A stretch of DNA of 64,000 nucleotides from Trypanosoma brucei (GCA_000002445.1 CP000068.1:1544199-1608198), one strand, 5' to 3'. Positions 1 through 64,000 are shown, counted from the first letter of the stretch. Program-made: numbers and translations. Notes: generated by a model from the letters alone, not told the origin.

Positions 1-355
1 TATCTGTCTTAATTCTTCATTCATAATATTTTCGCCCCCACAATTTTATAATCATCCACCCTCATTCACTCACTTACTCACATTCCAATCTTGCTACTTT
101 TCAAGTTCATCTTTTTGTTTCCGCATTCAGGTTTTAACAATATCCTCATACTAATATTTGTATATGCACAGCCACACCACTTTCCTATCACCATTATTGT
201 TACAACGCTAACTAATATTCATCAAATAAATAAAATAAACAAAATAAACAAAATTAGAACATCACTCATTTTTCATACCTTATCTCTCTGTTACTTTACA
301 TCCATCGGCCACCTTCATACGAAGGTTTAAATAATAGCATATTTTCATCGAAAAG

Positions 356-373
356 TGTGAAAATATAACAGAG
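356..373 (-). promoter_or_regulatory. Variant VSG 3'UTR 16-mer (gtgtgaaaatataacaga)
   Basis: It sits just downstream of the VSG stop and resembles gtgttaaaatatatca. Confidence 0.4.
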
Positions 374-396
374 TCGCAAAAATATAGGTAAAAATT

Positions 397-1999
397 TTAA
401 AACAGTAAGGCCGTAAAAACAGCGGTCATCAGAGCCAATTACTTATTGACTAGAAAACTTCCATTTCGGCATTTCTCTGTATCCTTGTCATCCTCACCAT
501 CTTTGTCCTTTCTGAAACCACAAACGGGGGTTTGGCCTGCTGTGTTTTCAGCTTCGCATTTGGCTTTGTCAGTGCCGTGTTTGGTGCACCTGTCTGAAGC
601 AGTTTTTCTCATCTTTCCCTCCTGTTTCTTGAGTTGCTTTTTCTGCTTCTTTTTTGCTCTCTTCACTCAATGTGCACCTTTTCTTTGGTTCTTTTGCTTC
701 GGCGTCCCATTTGCAGGATGGTTTGCACTCTGTGTTTTTGTTTATCCTATTGCATTTTTCTTCGGCTTCTTCTTGGTTTTGTTTATTGTTTTCTGCTGCT
801 ACTGCTGCACCTGGCGCTTTTTGGGATTGCTGCTGTATAGCCATTGCATTCAGCTGCAGGAGGTTTGTTAGGCTTTCATTGAGGCTGGTTAATTGAATCT
901 CTGCCTGCAAAGTAGTGCGTTGCTCATCCTTTAGTGCCTGTTGCTTTTGAGCTGCTTTATCAAGAGCGCTTAGCCATGTCGGCTCCTGTATCGTGTTTGC
1001 CGCACTTACAAACGCTACACATGGACCTGTGCCTCCCGCGTCAGCGCCGTTGCAGTTGCCCGCTGCCCCTGCTGAGCCGACGTATCCTATGTATCCTACG
1101 GCGCCGCCAGTCCCTTTCGGTTCGTATAGCAGCGCCCTAATGCTGCTGCCGGCCTGTGCTATGTCCGTTTGCTGGTTAGCTTTATCGTGGTTGCCTTCGC
1201 TGCTGCAGTGTTCCGTTATTTGTGTCCACGCTGCTAGTGGTTTGCCTTGAGCCCCGAAATCCTGCTCTGTAGCTTGGGTTTTGTAGCGTGCCGCGGCGTT
1301 GTTGCTGGTACTGTCCGAGGCGCATAGACATGTCATGGTTTCTGCTAGTGAATTTTTGCTTGATGAGCCGCTTTTGCTGTTGGTGCCGCAGTGCGCTTCC
1401 CTGGTCGCCCCTGTGCCGGTTAGCTTGAGGTTGACTTTGTTTCCGCCGGGCCCGTATATTGCTTCCTCTAAGGCCGACTTGATTGCGGCGGCAGCGTCGG
1501 CTTCTTCTAAATAGTCTTTGGCTTGGTCCGCTAGAGTTTTCATTAGTTCGACGGTTTTGTTTATTTGCATGTGCAGTGGGCTCGCCGGCTGCGCCGCGAT
1601 CTTGAGTTTCTGTTTTTCTTCTGGAGCTAAATTTTTTAGGTAGTTGGCTGCCTCTTGATACTGTGCCTTTGAGCTTCCCTTGCACTTTTCAGGAATCTCA
1701 GAGTCTCCCGTTGCCGCTTCTCCTGATGTGGTTGTTTTGTCTGCCATTTTTGCAATTGCGGAGAGCTCGCTTAGAATTAAAGCTATGTGTTGTGTTCTAA
1801 GAGCCGCATCCTTCGCTGCCGCAGACGGCTTGTTCTTACTTTGGAGCTTTGTGGCAGCCAGCACCACGTTGCATAGCAGTCCAAATGTTTGTCTGTTTTC
1901 ACCTTTGGTCGCGGTTCCCGCTTCAGTGGCTGCCGCGTACGTTATAAGCAGCAATGCTACCGCCACTACCGCTTTAGTTGGCCTTTGGTCCAATCGCAT
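397..1999 (-). pseudogene. VSG: VSG (A-type N-terminal domain) pseudogene. A frameshift near 569-666 separates the CTD tail, and an in-frame TAA interrupts the GPI signal (..NGSFLVNK*LALMTAVFTALLF*).
   Basis: The 476-aa ORF 569..1999 starts with a signal peptide (MRLDQRPTKAVVAVALLLITYAAATEA) and has the GENRQTFGLLC and ALYGPG..CLCA motifs plus a Cys-rich CTD. ORF 439..666 in another frame carries the C-terminal end. A 16-mer-like 3'UTR element lies downstream. Confidence 0.75.
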
Positions 2000-2162
2000 C
2001 TCAGTTTGTGTCTAGTGCGTTTCTTTCAGCCTGGATCCGTAGGTAAAAGTGTGAGAAAGATGACGGTTGTTGGTTTTTCCGGCATGTTTTTGAAGTACTT
2101 CGCCTTTAAAAGCTTAGGGTGAGCCAGCTGTTCTGGTGCTCGTTATTTTTGACAAAATAACT

Positions 2163-3260
2163 TCACCATGGACGTTTTGGGACGTCACTTCGACTTAATA
2201 AATCTGGCGGCCCATTGGAATGGCGGCTCGGGTGAAGCCTTTGCTGCGGTTTCATTGTAATACTGTCGCAAACAATACGGTTGCCATTCACTTCCATGGA
2301 TCGCATTAAAATTCTTTTCACATGCATTACATAATGACAATCTTGCATATCCACCGTTAATAACCCCTCAATTTTAAATTTATTCTTTATAACTTCCACG
2401 ACCATAATATCTTCATTGAGTGCTCTAAAATCAATATATGTTTCGACATTTCTGAATTTAATTTCTGATTTTACTAATTTTATCAAAAGCTCATAATCAA
2501 CAATTTTCTTAACTACATCCCTTGATAGTGTGGACGCATAACCTATTGTGTGCCATGTAATTTCGTCACTAAATTCTTTAGGATAACCAACCGCTCTTGC
2601 CACATTCAATTTCTCCATTGGCAATATTTCAAGGCACTGTAACAACAATGGCACCCTCATAAAAATATTATCATCTGCTTTCATTATATAAGGGTTTGTT
2701 GGCTTGAATAATTACACTGCAAATTTAAACTACAGATACGTGTTTCTACTCATCGTGAGTTCTGCTTCCCATCCCCAATTACACCCCTCTCCAACTTTTT
2801 TATCTGCTGTAGGATTTACATCGCAAACTGGTAAAATAATAATATCCTGCTTTAACTCCGCCTCTTCTTCAGCGATTACTCTGAGCTCGCAATTGTTATT
2901 TGTATGAGGTGAAAGGGTATATACTACAGACAACTTCCCAGTAAAATTATTTACCTTCCTTGCCGCTTCGGGATAACTCCAACACGTTTCCCTCTGAAGG
3001 TTGCGCCTTCTGAATCTCCCATCATTATCTATGGAAGGTATTCCAGCTACAACCAAATAATCGTCGGCTTTCCAAATCATCCTTACATCTTTCGAAACAA
3101 ATTTAATACACTCATCCTCAACAACTTCTAGTGAAATAGTGTCACACACGTCAAATAAGCTGTATAGTGACGTTCCTAAATTAACAGAAATAACAATTAA
3201 AAAAAGTAAACTATCATTAACCAAATAGTTTGCAAATACTTTATAAGATGCTATTCCCAT
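2163..3260 (-). pseudogene. ESAG-like / glycosyltransferase-like subtelomeric type-II membrane protein gene, split into two ORFs (2730..3260 and 2163..2684); family uncertain (ESAG3-like?).
   Basis: There is an N-terminal hydrophobic segment (SLLFLIVISVNLGTSLYS) and an IWKADDYLVV motif reminiscent of the GT DxD region. It is related to the ORFs at 25036-26001 and ~55700-56560, and an internal 540 bp is duplicated at 12591-13130. Confidence 0.35.
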
Positions 3261-62199: not shown

Positions 62200-62640
62200 A
62201 ACACTCTTATTATAATATTAGCTTATACGCACTCACAACACTCTTCTATTATTATTATTATTATTATTATTATTATTATTATTATTATTATTATTATTAT
62301 TATTATTATTATTATTATTATTATTATTATTATTATTATTATTATTATTATTATTATTATTATTATTATTATTATTATTATTATTATTATTATTATTATT
62401 ATTATTATTATTATTATTATTATTATTATTATTATTATTATTATTATTATTATTATTATTATTATTATTATTATTATTATTATTATTATTATTATTATTA
62501 TTATTATTATTATTATTATTATTATTATTATTATTATTATTATTATTATTATTATTATTATTATTATTATTATTATTATTATTATATTTGTATACACACA
62601 CCAACAACTCACTCCTATCATTTTTACTGCTACTCATAAA
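62200..62640 (-). repeat. 70-bp repeat with a hyper-expanded (TAA)~111 tract (62251-62583) plus a second partial unit
   Basis: ttagcttatacgcactcacaacactcttct is followed by ~333 bp of perfect (att)n, then atatttgtatacacacaccaacaactcactcc. Confidence 0.9.
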
Positions 62641-62803
62641 ATTAACAAAATATACAAATTATAAAATTTTTAAAAAGTCACTCCCTTTTCATTCCCTGAA
62701 ACTTTACGTCTTTACGCTCATAGGGCAATGTCACAAATTTGTAACCAACCTTTTCACATTTTTTAGTTTTAAACAGCTCGATTTTAATATTTCTTTCAAA
62801 ATG

Positions 62804-62819
62804 TGTTACAATATAACAA
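62804..62819 (-). promoter_or_regulatory. VSG 3'UTR 16-mer variant (gtgttacaatataaca)
   Basis: Position 3' of the VSG tail at ~62930. Confidence 0.4.
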
Positions 62820-62929
62820 AGTTTGCTAATTTCATAAGGTTTCATATAATTGAGTAAATATCCTTAAATTCCTTAGAATGCTAGAATGCTAAGGAATCAC
62901 AAGAAAAGCAGCACCCATACTCAGAGTCA

Positions 62930-64000
62930 ATTTTTTATTGACGAGAGAACTACCATTTCGACACATTTCTTTATCTTTATTAGGTTATCCATTTTTACCC
63001 TTTACTCATCCACAAACATGGCTAGATTTTTCAACATTTTCTTCTTACAAGTTGCTCTGTCATTGTGAACAGTATAGTTAACAGTATTTGTTCCTTCAGT
63101 TTGAGTTTGGGATACAAGGACACCATTTGTTGTGGACTTTGTTTCATTAAATTTGCACTTTGTTTTGCCTTCAGCTTCCTTTTATTGTAACTACTGTAAC
63201 GCTTGTTTTTGCATTCTGTTGCATCTTTAATTTTATTGCAGTTGTTTTCTACCGCCTTAGTATTTCTTCCTTTTTTGCTTTGTAAAGTTCTTTGCTAAGG
63301 CTGGCGACTTTAATCGCGGCATGTAGCTCATAGTAGCTAATGAGTTCGGCTAGTTCGTCGCCTTGCTTTATCATACAGAGCTTTGCTGCGCTTTTGCGAC
63401 CTGCAGCACTGCTGGGAAGGTCTTCCGTATCCACCATGTCGTTTAGCTCTTTGTCTGCTGCAGGGGAGTCGTCGCCAAATTACTGCCTTCACTTCTGTGT
63501 TGACCGCTGGCTTGGTTGCATCTCTATTGGTTAGCAAAACACTTTTGATCACTTCTGTCAACGGTCGGTGGTCCGATTGCTTGGCTGTCTCATTTGTGAA
63601 TTCACTGTCTTTGCTCTCCGGCAACGATTTTTGTTCTGCAGCTACATCTGCTCAAGCTGCCACTTTGCCTTCAAGCGCGTCTTTGTTGCACATTCTCGGC
63701 TCGGAGTTCCCTGTCTGTAGAGATAAGTAGCCACCTATGATTTCTATAGCAGCTCTGGGGCCATGTGCACCTTCCGTGAAGCCGCTGGCGGCATGCGCGA
63801 CCAGTAGATTGCACTTGTTTGTGTCAGAAGCTGGTGTGTGCGAGCCGCTTCTGTCGCCTACCACGGCGAAAACACTACCTTTAAAACCGGTGATATCTAA
63901 AAAATTGTTTGTTGCGGCGGCAACCTCGAGGGAAGTTAGTTTGGTATTGCAGTTGTATAGGCCAAGGTTGCCGAGCGATTTCGCCGCTGCCGTAGAATTC
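62930..64000 (-). pseudogene. VSG: VSG pseudogene, partial (it continues beyond the window end), with multiple frameshifts
   Basis: GPI-tail coding (caattttttattgacgagagaactacc) is at ~62930-62960. ORFs 63249..63437, 63337..63624 and 63652..63864 are in different frames, with N-terminal-domain-like GSHTPASDTNKCNLLVAHAASGFTEGAHG. Confidence 0.5.

Follow-up and report, generated by a model that had tools for sequence, protein, structure and literature searches.

In the window, a stretch of 64,000 nucleotides from Trypanosoma brucei, tblastn resolved 20 VSG-derived segments: 16 were full-length units, three were fragments (15980-16912, 29570-29896 and 58071-58606) and one, at 62895-64000, was a unit truncated by the end of the window (Table 1). 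When more than 100 VSG proteins were compared with the whole window by tblastn, each of the 565 HSPs was on the minus strand, and the plus strand had none. The distance from start to start of the full-length units was 3552 bp on average (range 2743-4396 bp). These findings agree with the initial annotation, which had described approximately 18 VSG units on one strand with a period of 3-4 kb. The uniform orientation that it had proposed held for the VSGs but not for two retroelements, a RIME and an ingi, which were on the plus strand. Two glycosyltransferase pseudogenes and one further pseudogene pair were also present in the array.

On the minus strand, each cassette consisted of one to six 70-bp repeats followed by an upstream region of 0.6-2.4 kb, a VSG of approximately 1.5 kb and a 3'UTR with a 16-mer, and a gap of only approximately 70-250 bp separated this 16-mer from the 70-bp repeats of the next cassette. 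Pfam searches of minus-strand ORFs detected VSG_B (PF13206), the A-type Trypan_glycop (PF00913) and the VSG C-terminal domain, CTD (PF10659, Trypan_glycop_C). An N-terminal domain, either PF13206 or PF00913, scored above gathering on ORFs of 15 units, and the units lacking such a match were covered by tblastn to named VSGs. U3 and U18 had no Pfam match, yet they were 35-99% identical to proteins named VSG. PF10659 was matched in U4, U8, U10 and U12. GPI-signal-like tails were present in some frame of most units and were often disrupted.

Table 1. Features of the window, with the 3' 16-mer (number of mismatches, mm) and the upstream 70-bp repeats of each VSG unit.
Feature	Coordinates	Strand	Basis	16-mer	70-bp repeats
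U1, B-type VSG pseudogene	379-1999	-	Pfam VSG_B E=6.6e-35	355-370 (2 mm)	next row but one
UDP-Gal/UDP-GlcNAc-dependent glycosyltransferase (hexosyltransferase, PF01762 family) pseudogene	2163-3260	-	protein homology search; tblastn 3107-2256, E=7e-124		
70-bp repeat, 1 copy, upstream of U1	3913-3999	-	core match, nhmmer profile		
U2, A-type VSG pseudogene, several stops and frameshift	4277-5867	-	PF00913 on 4446-4964	4225-4240 (perfect)	7030-7091, degenerate
U3, VSG, CTD frameshifted	7241-8748	-	homology to named VSG	7201-7216 (3 mm)	10007-10095, then (ATT)45 at 10062-10196
U4, B-type VSG, complete but for one TAA at 11412-11410	10408-11949	-	Pfam, lesion map	10356-10371 (1 mm)	relic, about 14120-14190
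Second glycosyltransferase pseudogene, truncated	12534-13235	-	blastn, tblastn		
U5b, B-type VSG pseudogene, many stops	14460-15956	-	tblastn, lesion map, Pfam	14389-14404 (2 mm)	
U5a, incomplete VSG, B-type N-domain fragment (profile ~127-306)	15980-16912	-	Pfam, tblastn		18379-18469
U6, B-type VSG, full-length 481-aa ORF	18654-20099	-	Pfam; identical to XP_845142.1	18594-18609 (perfect)	22496-22648
RIME non-autonomous retroposon, 500 bp	20474-20973	+	read directly from sequence		
U7, B-type VSG pseudogene over three frames	22884-24495	-	tblastn, lesion map, Pfam	22811-22826 (3 mm)	26613-26657, half repeat
Pseudogene, signal-peptide-like start (MKFGILGTVLL...), upstream of U7	25063-26145	-	blastn, tblastx		
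U8, B-type VSG, full-length 501-aa ORF, CTD present	26962-28467	-	Pfam; identical to XP_845143.1		four, 29029-29350
U9, CTD-only VSG remnant	29570-29896	-	tblastn, tail frames	29488-29503 (1 mm)	
U10, B-type VSG, complete but for one TAA at 30574-30572 in CTD	30392-31972	-	Pfam, lesion map	30342-30357 (perfect)	32953-33018, degenerate
U11, A-type-like VSG pseudogene, one frameshift near 34332-34416	33310-34715	-	Pfam, tail frames	33196-33211 (3 mm)	three, 35836-36067
U12, B-type VSG, full-length 518-aa ORF with CTD	36199-37755	-	Pfam, homologues, tail frames	36141-36156 (2 mm)	four, 38896-39194
U13, B-type VSG pseudogene	39284-40944	-	tblastn, tail frames, Pfam		42142-42193, degenerate
U14, A-type VSG pseudogene	42470-44004	-	Pfam, lesion map	42392-42407 (3 mm)	six (54-bp variant), 45827-46199
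U15, B-type VSG pseudogene, 476-aa ORF, true ATG at 47885	46458-47888	-	Pfam, tail frames	46366-46381 (1 mm)	49775-49942
U16, A-type VSG pseudogene, many in-frame stops	50117-51739	-	Pfam, tblastn	50110-50125 (3 mm)	53325-53477
U17, B-type VSG pseudogene, frameshift and stops	53746-55280	-	tblastn, Pfam		57555-57677
U18, C-terminal fragment of U3-family VSG (residues ~275-474)	58071-58606	-	tblastn		
ingi non-LTR retrotransposon, 5'-truncated	58607-61414	+	Pfam, blastn		
70-bp repeat pair around perfect (TAT)113 at 62247-62585	62194-62625	-	repeat search, nhmmer		
U19, A-type VSG pseudogene, three frames with stops, cut by window end	62895-64000	-	tblastn, lesion map	62803-62818 (2 mm)	

Repeats flanking the VSG cassettes

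The core of the 70-bp repeat (TGTTGTGAGTGTGTATATAC) was matched 26 times, always on the minus strand, compared to 0.00 matches expected from shuffles. An nhmmer profile added degenerate copies, giving a total of 35 copies or part-copies in 17 clusters of one to six, all of them minus. Repeats were located 5' (sense-upstream) of 15 of the 16 complete units. The (TAT)113 tract is an expanded form of the TAA/TTA triplet run of the 70-bp repeat. When up to two mismatches were allowed, the 16-mer (TGATATATTTTAACAC) was matched 11 times, all minus, compared to 0.08 expected; with up to three mismatches it was found at the expected 3' site in 16 of the 20 VSG segments and was not found at U8, U17, U5a and U18. 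All of the 70-bp repeats and 16-mers were sense-oriented, each on the expected side of the genes. The claim that each unit is bounded by both elements went too far: the 16-mer was perfect in only three copies (starting at 4225, 18594 and 30342) and not recognisable at the complete units U8 and U17, and the repeat upstream of U4 was a very degenerate, barely recognisable relic, while U7 had only half a repeat. Since these elements are degenerate or absent in a few cassettes, efficient donation of a whole cassette would not be expected from all units.

Coding capacity of the VSG units

No unit was fully canonical. In three units the ORF was full-length but the GPI tail was defective or atypical, two units were interrupted by a single nonsense codon, and the remaining ones were multiply damaged or incomplete. 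The array had been described as mostly pseudogenes, which is confirmed by the frameshifts and stops present in most units. Among the full-length ORFs, the U6 product has an atypical GPI signal, ending ...NTTWSNSFVIHKDPILLAFLTLGANI, the U8 product has no hydrophobic GPI tail and ends ...KGDIPKDKKAF, and the tail of the U12 product is shortened (...CKGSCFDLDKKLALIGVAL).

The initial annotation had named U6, U8, U12 and U15 as the approximately three to four copies that look close to intact. All four ORFs exist, with the boundaries given in Table 1, and the first three are full-length with the tail defects described above. In contrast, the CTD of U15 is frameshifted, and the frame that encodes its GPI signal is a different one and has two stops; U15 appears intact because the shifted frame stays open. 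Its product had no entry in the protein collection by exact look-up. The list had also missed U4 and U10, each of which is one TAA away from complete. U4 has a signal peptide, an N-terminal domain, a CTD and a canonical GPI signal (...CNDSSIFFNKKFTLMSVAFVALLF), and the GPI signal of U10 is canonical as well. U4 and U10 are nearer to intact than U15.

In the damaged units, long open frames were found in U1 (ORF 569-1999, 476 aa), which has a frameshifted CTD and a stop within the GPI signal, in U3 (ORF 7324-8748, 474 aa), 99% identical to 'VSG 1125.4691' of strain EATRO1125, and in U14, where the N-domain ORF 42817-44004 is open and stops occur in the CTD. U11 retains a near-canonical tail (...GSNSFVIHKAPLLLAVFIK), and its A-type assignment is weak (16.7 bits, below the Pfam cut-off). 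U5a has neither a start nor a CTD and is fused to the 5' flank of U5b.

Retroelements, other pseudogenes and recombination footprints

The RIME is flanked by a 14-bp target-site duplication (ATCCATTCTTGTCC) and is located 375 bp upstream of the U6 start codon. The ingi carries RNase H (PF00075) and C2H2 zinc-finger (PF13894) ORFs, a RIME-type 3' end and an A-rich tail, and its 3' end (61162-61415) is 92% identical to RIME positions 20725-20975. The names ingi and RIME were given to these plus-strand elements on the basis of the known sequences of such retroposons. U18 adjoins the ingi, and the N-terminal part of U18 was not found on the far side of the ingi.

The first glycosyltransferase pseudogene lies between the 70-bp repeat and U1, with an in-frame interruption between two ORFs. 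The second is 98% identical to it (12590-13160 compared to 2600-3170). The pseudogene upstream of U7 has a degenerate paralogue at 55730-56707, upstream of U17, with 72-76% identity by blastn; conservation of the pair was protein-like by tblastx, and no Pfam match was obtained for it.

U13 and U12 were 93% identical (38977-39663 compared to 35846-36534) across the CTD, the 3'UTR and the downstream 70-bp repeats, but only approximately 26% identical in their N-domains. U9, a CTD with its own 16-mer that separates the 3' end of U10 from the 70-bp repeats, is a further recombination footprint. Judged from this anatomy, the duplicated 3' modules, the stray C-terminal remnant, the retroelement insertions and the co-duplicated glycosyltransferase pseudogenes are signs of birth-and-death evolution.

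Origin of the window

By exact look-up, the products of U6 and U8 were 100% identical to XP_845142.1 ('VSG, atypical') and XP_845143.1 ('VSG, putative') of T. b. brucei TREU927, respectively. Because two ORFs are identical to TREU927 proteins, the window is taken as TREU927 reference sequence. The nearest relatives of other units were named VSGs of T. brucei EATRO1125 and T. equiperdum, and several units have homologues there (96-99% and 58-85% identity, respectively), as would be expected if the window derived from a closely related trypanosome whose archive is built in the same way, such as T. b. gambiense, T. b. rhodesiense, T. evansi, T. equiperdum or another T. b. brucei strain. However, the two TREU927 entries, which have consecutive accession numbers, were the sole 100% full-length protein matches, and the EATRO1125 counterparts were 98-99% identical, so that an origin outside TREU927 is very improbable. 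Matches to trypanosome VSGs, whose absence would have refuted the initial annotation, were obtained, and its dismissal of a prokaryotic locus was right. The window is eukaryotic, and repeats and genes that alternate with such a period should not be mistaken for a prokaryotic defence or cassette system.

A probable silent VSG array and its possible use as donor

The window almost certainly belongs to one of the silent VSG arrays of T. b. brucei TREU927, whose location would be chromosome-internal to subtelomeric, and nothing in its content contradicts this reading. It shares with the TREU927 archive, the silent subtelomeric arrays of the megabase chromosomes that the parasite copies when it changes its surface coat, the one-strand head-to-tail cassettes with 70-bp repeats on the 5' side and the 16-mer on the 3' side, the mix of A- and B-type N-domains, the majority of pseudogenes together with 'atypical' copies, and the interspersed glycosyltransferase pseudogenes and ingi/RIME elements. 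It differs from that archive in nothing, being a member of it and part of the reference sequence itself. No telomere repeats were found within the 64-kb window, and the term subtelomeric for this array therefore rests on the literature on array location.

A bloodstream or metacyclic VSG expression site, that is, an active or silent telomeric transcription unit, would also present a VSG behind 70-bp repeats, with the same 3'UTR 16-mer, and some BESs carry VSG pseudogenes, ingi and ESAG3 pseudogenes downstream of the 70-bp repeats (PMC2567434). In contrast to such a site, with its one terminal VSG, kb-long 70-bp tracts, ESAGs, Pol I promoter and telomere, the window holds 17 tandem cassettes across 64 kb, has one to six repeat copies per junction instead of a kb-scale tract, lacks telomere repeats and contains only defective VSGs. 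No ESAG families were detected among the ORFs tested by Pfam. The probability that the window belongs to an expression site is thus negligible, and this explanation is refuted for practical purposes.

As all copies in this array are damaged in some way, none is expressible unchanged. VSG arrays consist largely of pseudogenes, with approximately 5% of the genes predicted to be fully functional, and in TREU927 itself mosaicism and 3' donation bring pseudogenes into use (PMC3708902). From the literature, the cassettes would not be transcribed in place and would act as donors: once the active telomeric expression site has been broken, duplicative gene conversion could bring a whole cassette into it, with upstream homology provided by the 70-bp repeats and downstream homology by the conserved end of the C-terminal domain and 3'UTR. 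Selection of archive VSGs needs the 70-bp repeats (PMC4858185). Damaged copies might contribute by 3' donation, in which the resident gene receives a copy of the N-domain but retains its own C-terminal end, or by segmental conversion leading to mosaic VSGs; in segmental conversion, array pseudogenes repair breaks (PMC12137147). The tail defects of the three full-length ORFs could be repaired by 3' donation. The Borrelia vls, Anaplasma msp2 and Neisseria pilS archives, listed in PMC3708902, follow the same logic, with untranscribed and often incomplete donors feeding segmental gene conversion into one expression locus. However, these archives are small and involve unrelated proteins and organisms, whereas each trypanosome cassette comprises a full gene with dedicated flanking repeats, and there are thousands of them.

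The content of the window is already known, the VSG archive of TREU927 having been annotated and studied since 2005-2007. Because the sequence is the annotated TREU927 reference, the present description carries little weight as a discovery. There is a slim chance that U8 is a maintained, non-GPI VSG-like protein with its own function and, separately, that the pseudogene pair at 25063-26145 and 55730-56707 represents an undescribed array-associated gene family. Maintenance rather than decay of U8 would be in line with its full-length ORF, without GPI tail and 16-mer, and with its counterpart in EATRO1125, which is 99% identical and of the same length. A small practical by-product of the analysis is the map of lesions per unit, which points to the copies that would serve most easily as donors.

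Organization of the VSG cassettes

The A/T skew was strong and uniform across the window, consistent with coding on the minus strand, and all of the long VSG-like ORFs were found on that strand. Pseudogenes were mapped by tblastn against the whole window, with over 100 VSG proteins as queries: 76 diverse A-type representatives, together with the ORFs of the window itself and named VSGs of T. brucei and T. equiperdum. All 565 VSG HSPs were on the minus strand and none was on the plus strand. The matches grouped into 20 segments, of which 16 were full-length cassettes, one was a cassette running off the window end and three were fragments (see table). 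The start-to-start distance of the 16 complete units averaged 3552 bp (range 2743–4396), and adjacent cassettes were tightly packed, with only approximately 70–250 bp between the 16-mer of one unit and the 70-bp repeats of the next. These figures bear out the initial annotation, which had proposed about 18 units on one strand at a 3–4 kb period.

The 70-bp repeat core TGTTGTGAGTGTGTATATAC had 26 matches, 26 of them on the minus strand, where shuffled sequences would give none, and stood in the classical arrangement of a (TRR)n run followed by AGGAGAGTGTTGTGAGTGTGTATATACGAATATTATAATAAGAGCAG. Degenerate copies were recovered with an nhmmer profile made from the core copies. Repeats in one to six copies were present upstream of 15 of the 16 complete units, 0.56–2.4 kb from the start codon; for unit 10408–11949, the sole trace was a barely recognizable relic near 14120–14190. 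The 3′UTR 16-mer TGATATATTTTAACAC gave 11 matches with up to two mismatches, all on the minus strand, compared to 0.08 expected. When up to three mismatches were allowed, its expected 3′UTR position was occupied in 16 of the 20 segments, and no copy was found at units 26962–28467 and 53746–55280. Only three 16-mers were perfect (4225, 18594 and 30342). The proposed architecture, with each unit bounded by these two elements, is thus real and far above chance, though somewhat overstated given the degenerate or missing repeats and 16-mers.

Two perfect triplet tracts, (ATT)45 at 10062–10196 and (TAT)113 at 62247–62585, each lay inside a 70-bp repeat unit and are strongly expanded forms of its TAA/TTA triplet run. 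Separately, at 45909–46188 the 70-bp repeat was present as a shortened, 54-bp variant in five tandem copies with 97% mutual identity, suggesting recent local amplification.

Features mapped in the window (positions within the window)
Feature	Positions	Strand	Method or remark
B-type VSG (PF13206)	569–1999, 18654–20099, 26962–28467, 30572–31972, 36199–37755, 46458–47888	minus	Pfam
A-type VSG (PF00913)	42817–44004, 50768–51448, 4446–4964	minus	Pfam
VSG N-domain fragment	15980–16912	minus	tblastn/Pfam
VSG C-terminal remnant	29570–29896	minus	tblastn
VSG C-terminal third	58071–58606	minus	tblastn
VSG cassette truncated by window end	62895–64000	minus	tblastn
Degenerate 70-bp repeats	132–213, 7030–7091, 26613–26657, 32953–33018, 42142–42193	minus	nhmmer
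Glycosyltransferase (PF01762-family) pseudogene	2163–3260		between 70-bp repeat and VSG
Glycosyltransferase (PF01762-family) pseudogene	12534–13235		between 70-bp repeat and VSG
Pseudogene pair, signal-peptide-like start (MKFGILGTVLL...)	25063–26145, 55730–56707	minus	72–76% DNA identity, degenerate
RIME, complete, 500 bp	20474–20973	plus	flanking 14-bp target-site duplication ATCCATTCTTGTCC
ingi, 5′-truncated	~58607–61414	plus	RNase H and C2H2 zinc-finger ORFs, RIME-type 3′ end, A-rich tail

Domain typing and relatives of the VSGs

Among the 20 segments, the N-domain was B-type in 12, A-type in four and weakly A-type in one (33310–34715); the remnant at 29570–29896 consisted of the C-terminal domain (CTD) only, with no N-domain to classify. 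Several units carried the VSG CTD (PF10659). The remaining two segments, 7241–8748 and the fragment at 58071–58606, form one family that was missed by the Pfam VSG N-domain models and whose full-length homologues carry the name VSG in T. equiperdum and EATRO1125. When ORF 7324–8748 was searched against PDB sequences, no VSG structure matched; the ORF was assigned as a VSG because homology search links it to proteins of that name.

By exact look-up (100% match), 18654–20099 and 26962–28467 were identified as XP_845142.1, "variant surface glycoprotein (VSG, atypical), putative", and XP_845143.1, "VSG, putative", respectively, both of T. brucei brucei TREU927, and their EATRO1125 counterparts were 98–99% identical. 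Both proteins are placed on a 1,608,198-bp record, by its length probably chromosome 5. The consecutive accession numbers suggest that the reference annotation has no further protein-coding gene between the two. With two 100% matches to adjacent TREU927 accessions, a different strain or subspecies is an unlikely source of the window. The other eight long ORFs had no exact entry in the protein collection, which would fit their annotation as pseudogenes in the reference. A literature search for papers mentioning the VSG protein accessions gave nothing relevant.

Condition of the VSG genes

No unit in the window encoded a fully canonical VSG. Three ORFs were full length with C-terminal defects. 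In 18654–20099 the GPI signal was atypical (…NTTWSNSFVIHKDPILLAFLTLGANI), which agrees with the "atypical" label of this entry; 26962–28467 ended in …KGDIPKDKKAF, with neither a hydrophobic tail nor a 16-mer; and in 36199–37755 the tail was shortened (…CKGSCFDLDKKLALIGVAL) and the 16-mer deviated at two positions. It is improbable that 26962–28467 is a maintained non-GPI protein. Two further units were each a single TAA short of a complete canonical VSG, namely 10408–11949 (TAA at 11412–11410, tail …CNDSSIFFNKKFTLMSVAFVALLF) and 30392–31972 (TAA at 30574–30572, perfect 16-mer). The 476 codons of 46458–47888 were open only through a shifted frame that chances to stay open, and the second half of its CTD and the GPI signal were in a different frame with two stops. 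All other units contained frameshifts and multiple stops. Of the genes first listed as close to intact, 18654–20099, 26962–28467 and 36199–37755 can therefore be kept as full length with defective tails and 46458–47888 cannot, while 10408–11949 and 30392–31972 had been omitted.

These findings support, with minor corrections, the reading of the window as a silent VSG array; it is annotated reference sequence of an already known, textbook system. A VSG expression site is excluded, being contradicted by the 17 cassettes in tandem, the short 70-bp repeat tracts, the defects in all of the VSGs and the finding of zero ESAG families among the tested ORFs. The absence of telomere repeats also speaks against it; scans of the 64-kb window detected none of these, nor any Rfam family or tRNA.

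Footprints of exchange and the role of the archive

Units 36157–37755 and 39284–40944 were 93% identical over the 70-bp repeat, 3′UTR and CTD (35846–36534 compared to 38977–39663), while the N-domains of these neighbors shared only approximately 26% identity. The common 3′ module is a footprint of 3′-end exchange inside the array. An orphan CTD with its own 16-mer (29488–29896) immediately follows the complete 3′ end of unit 30392–31972; it looks like a leftover from imprecise cassette replacement and counts as the second exchange footprint in the window.

The anatomy described here comes from this window, and the function is taken from published work. The VSGs of such arrays act as silent donors, approximately 5% of which are predicted to be fully functional (PMC3708902). 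In TREU927 infections, pseudogenes made up 42% of the identified N-domain donors, and were expressed via mosaicism or via "3′ donation", which retains the resident C-terminal end (PMC3708902). In recombinational switching, selection of archive VSGs requires the 70-bp repeats (PMC4858185), and where an active VSG has homologues, breaks in it are repaired from array pseudogenes by segmental conversion (PMC12137147).

Other genes and retroelements

The two glycosyltransferase pseudogenes were 98% identical over 571 bp (2600–3170 and 12590–13160), whereas the VSGs beside them (569–1999 and 10408–11949) shared only approximately 36–39% protein identity. For an old cassette duplication, this contrast suggests either recent gene conversion of the segment upstream or much faster divergence of the VSGs. 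The second pseudogene pair, both copies of which also have a 70-bp repeat on one side and a VSG on the other, gave no Pfam hit with the cut-off relaxed to E ≤ 1. Kinship with the glycosyltransferases was ruled out by comparison, the two being unrelated; we suspect that the pair may be of the ESAG type.

Both retroelements were on the plus strand. The ingi adjoins the C-terminal third of a VSG, and the missing N-terminal part was looked for past the ingi and not found. Simple insertion of the ingi into an intact VSG is therefore unsupported, and the 58071–61414 junction is attributed to a deletion or rearrangement. The "atypical" VSG 18654–20099 has the RIME 375 bp upstream, in the orientation opposite to that of the array.
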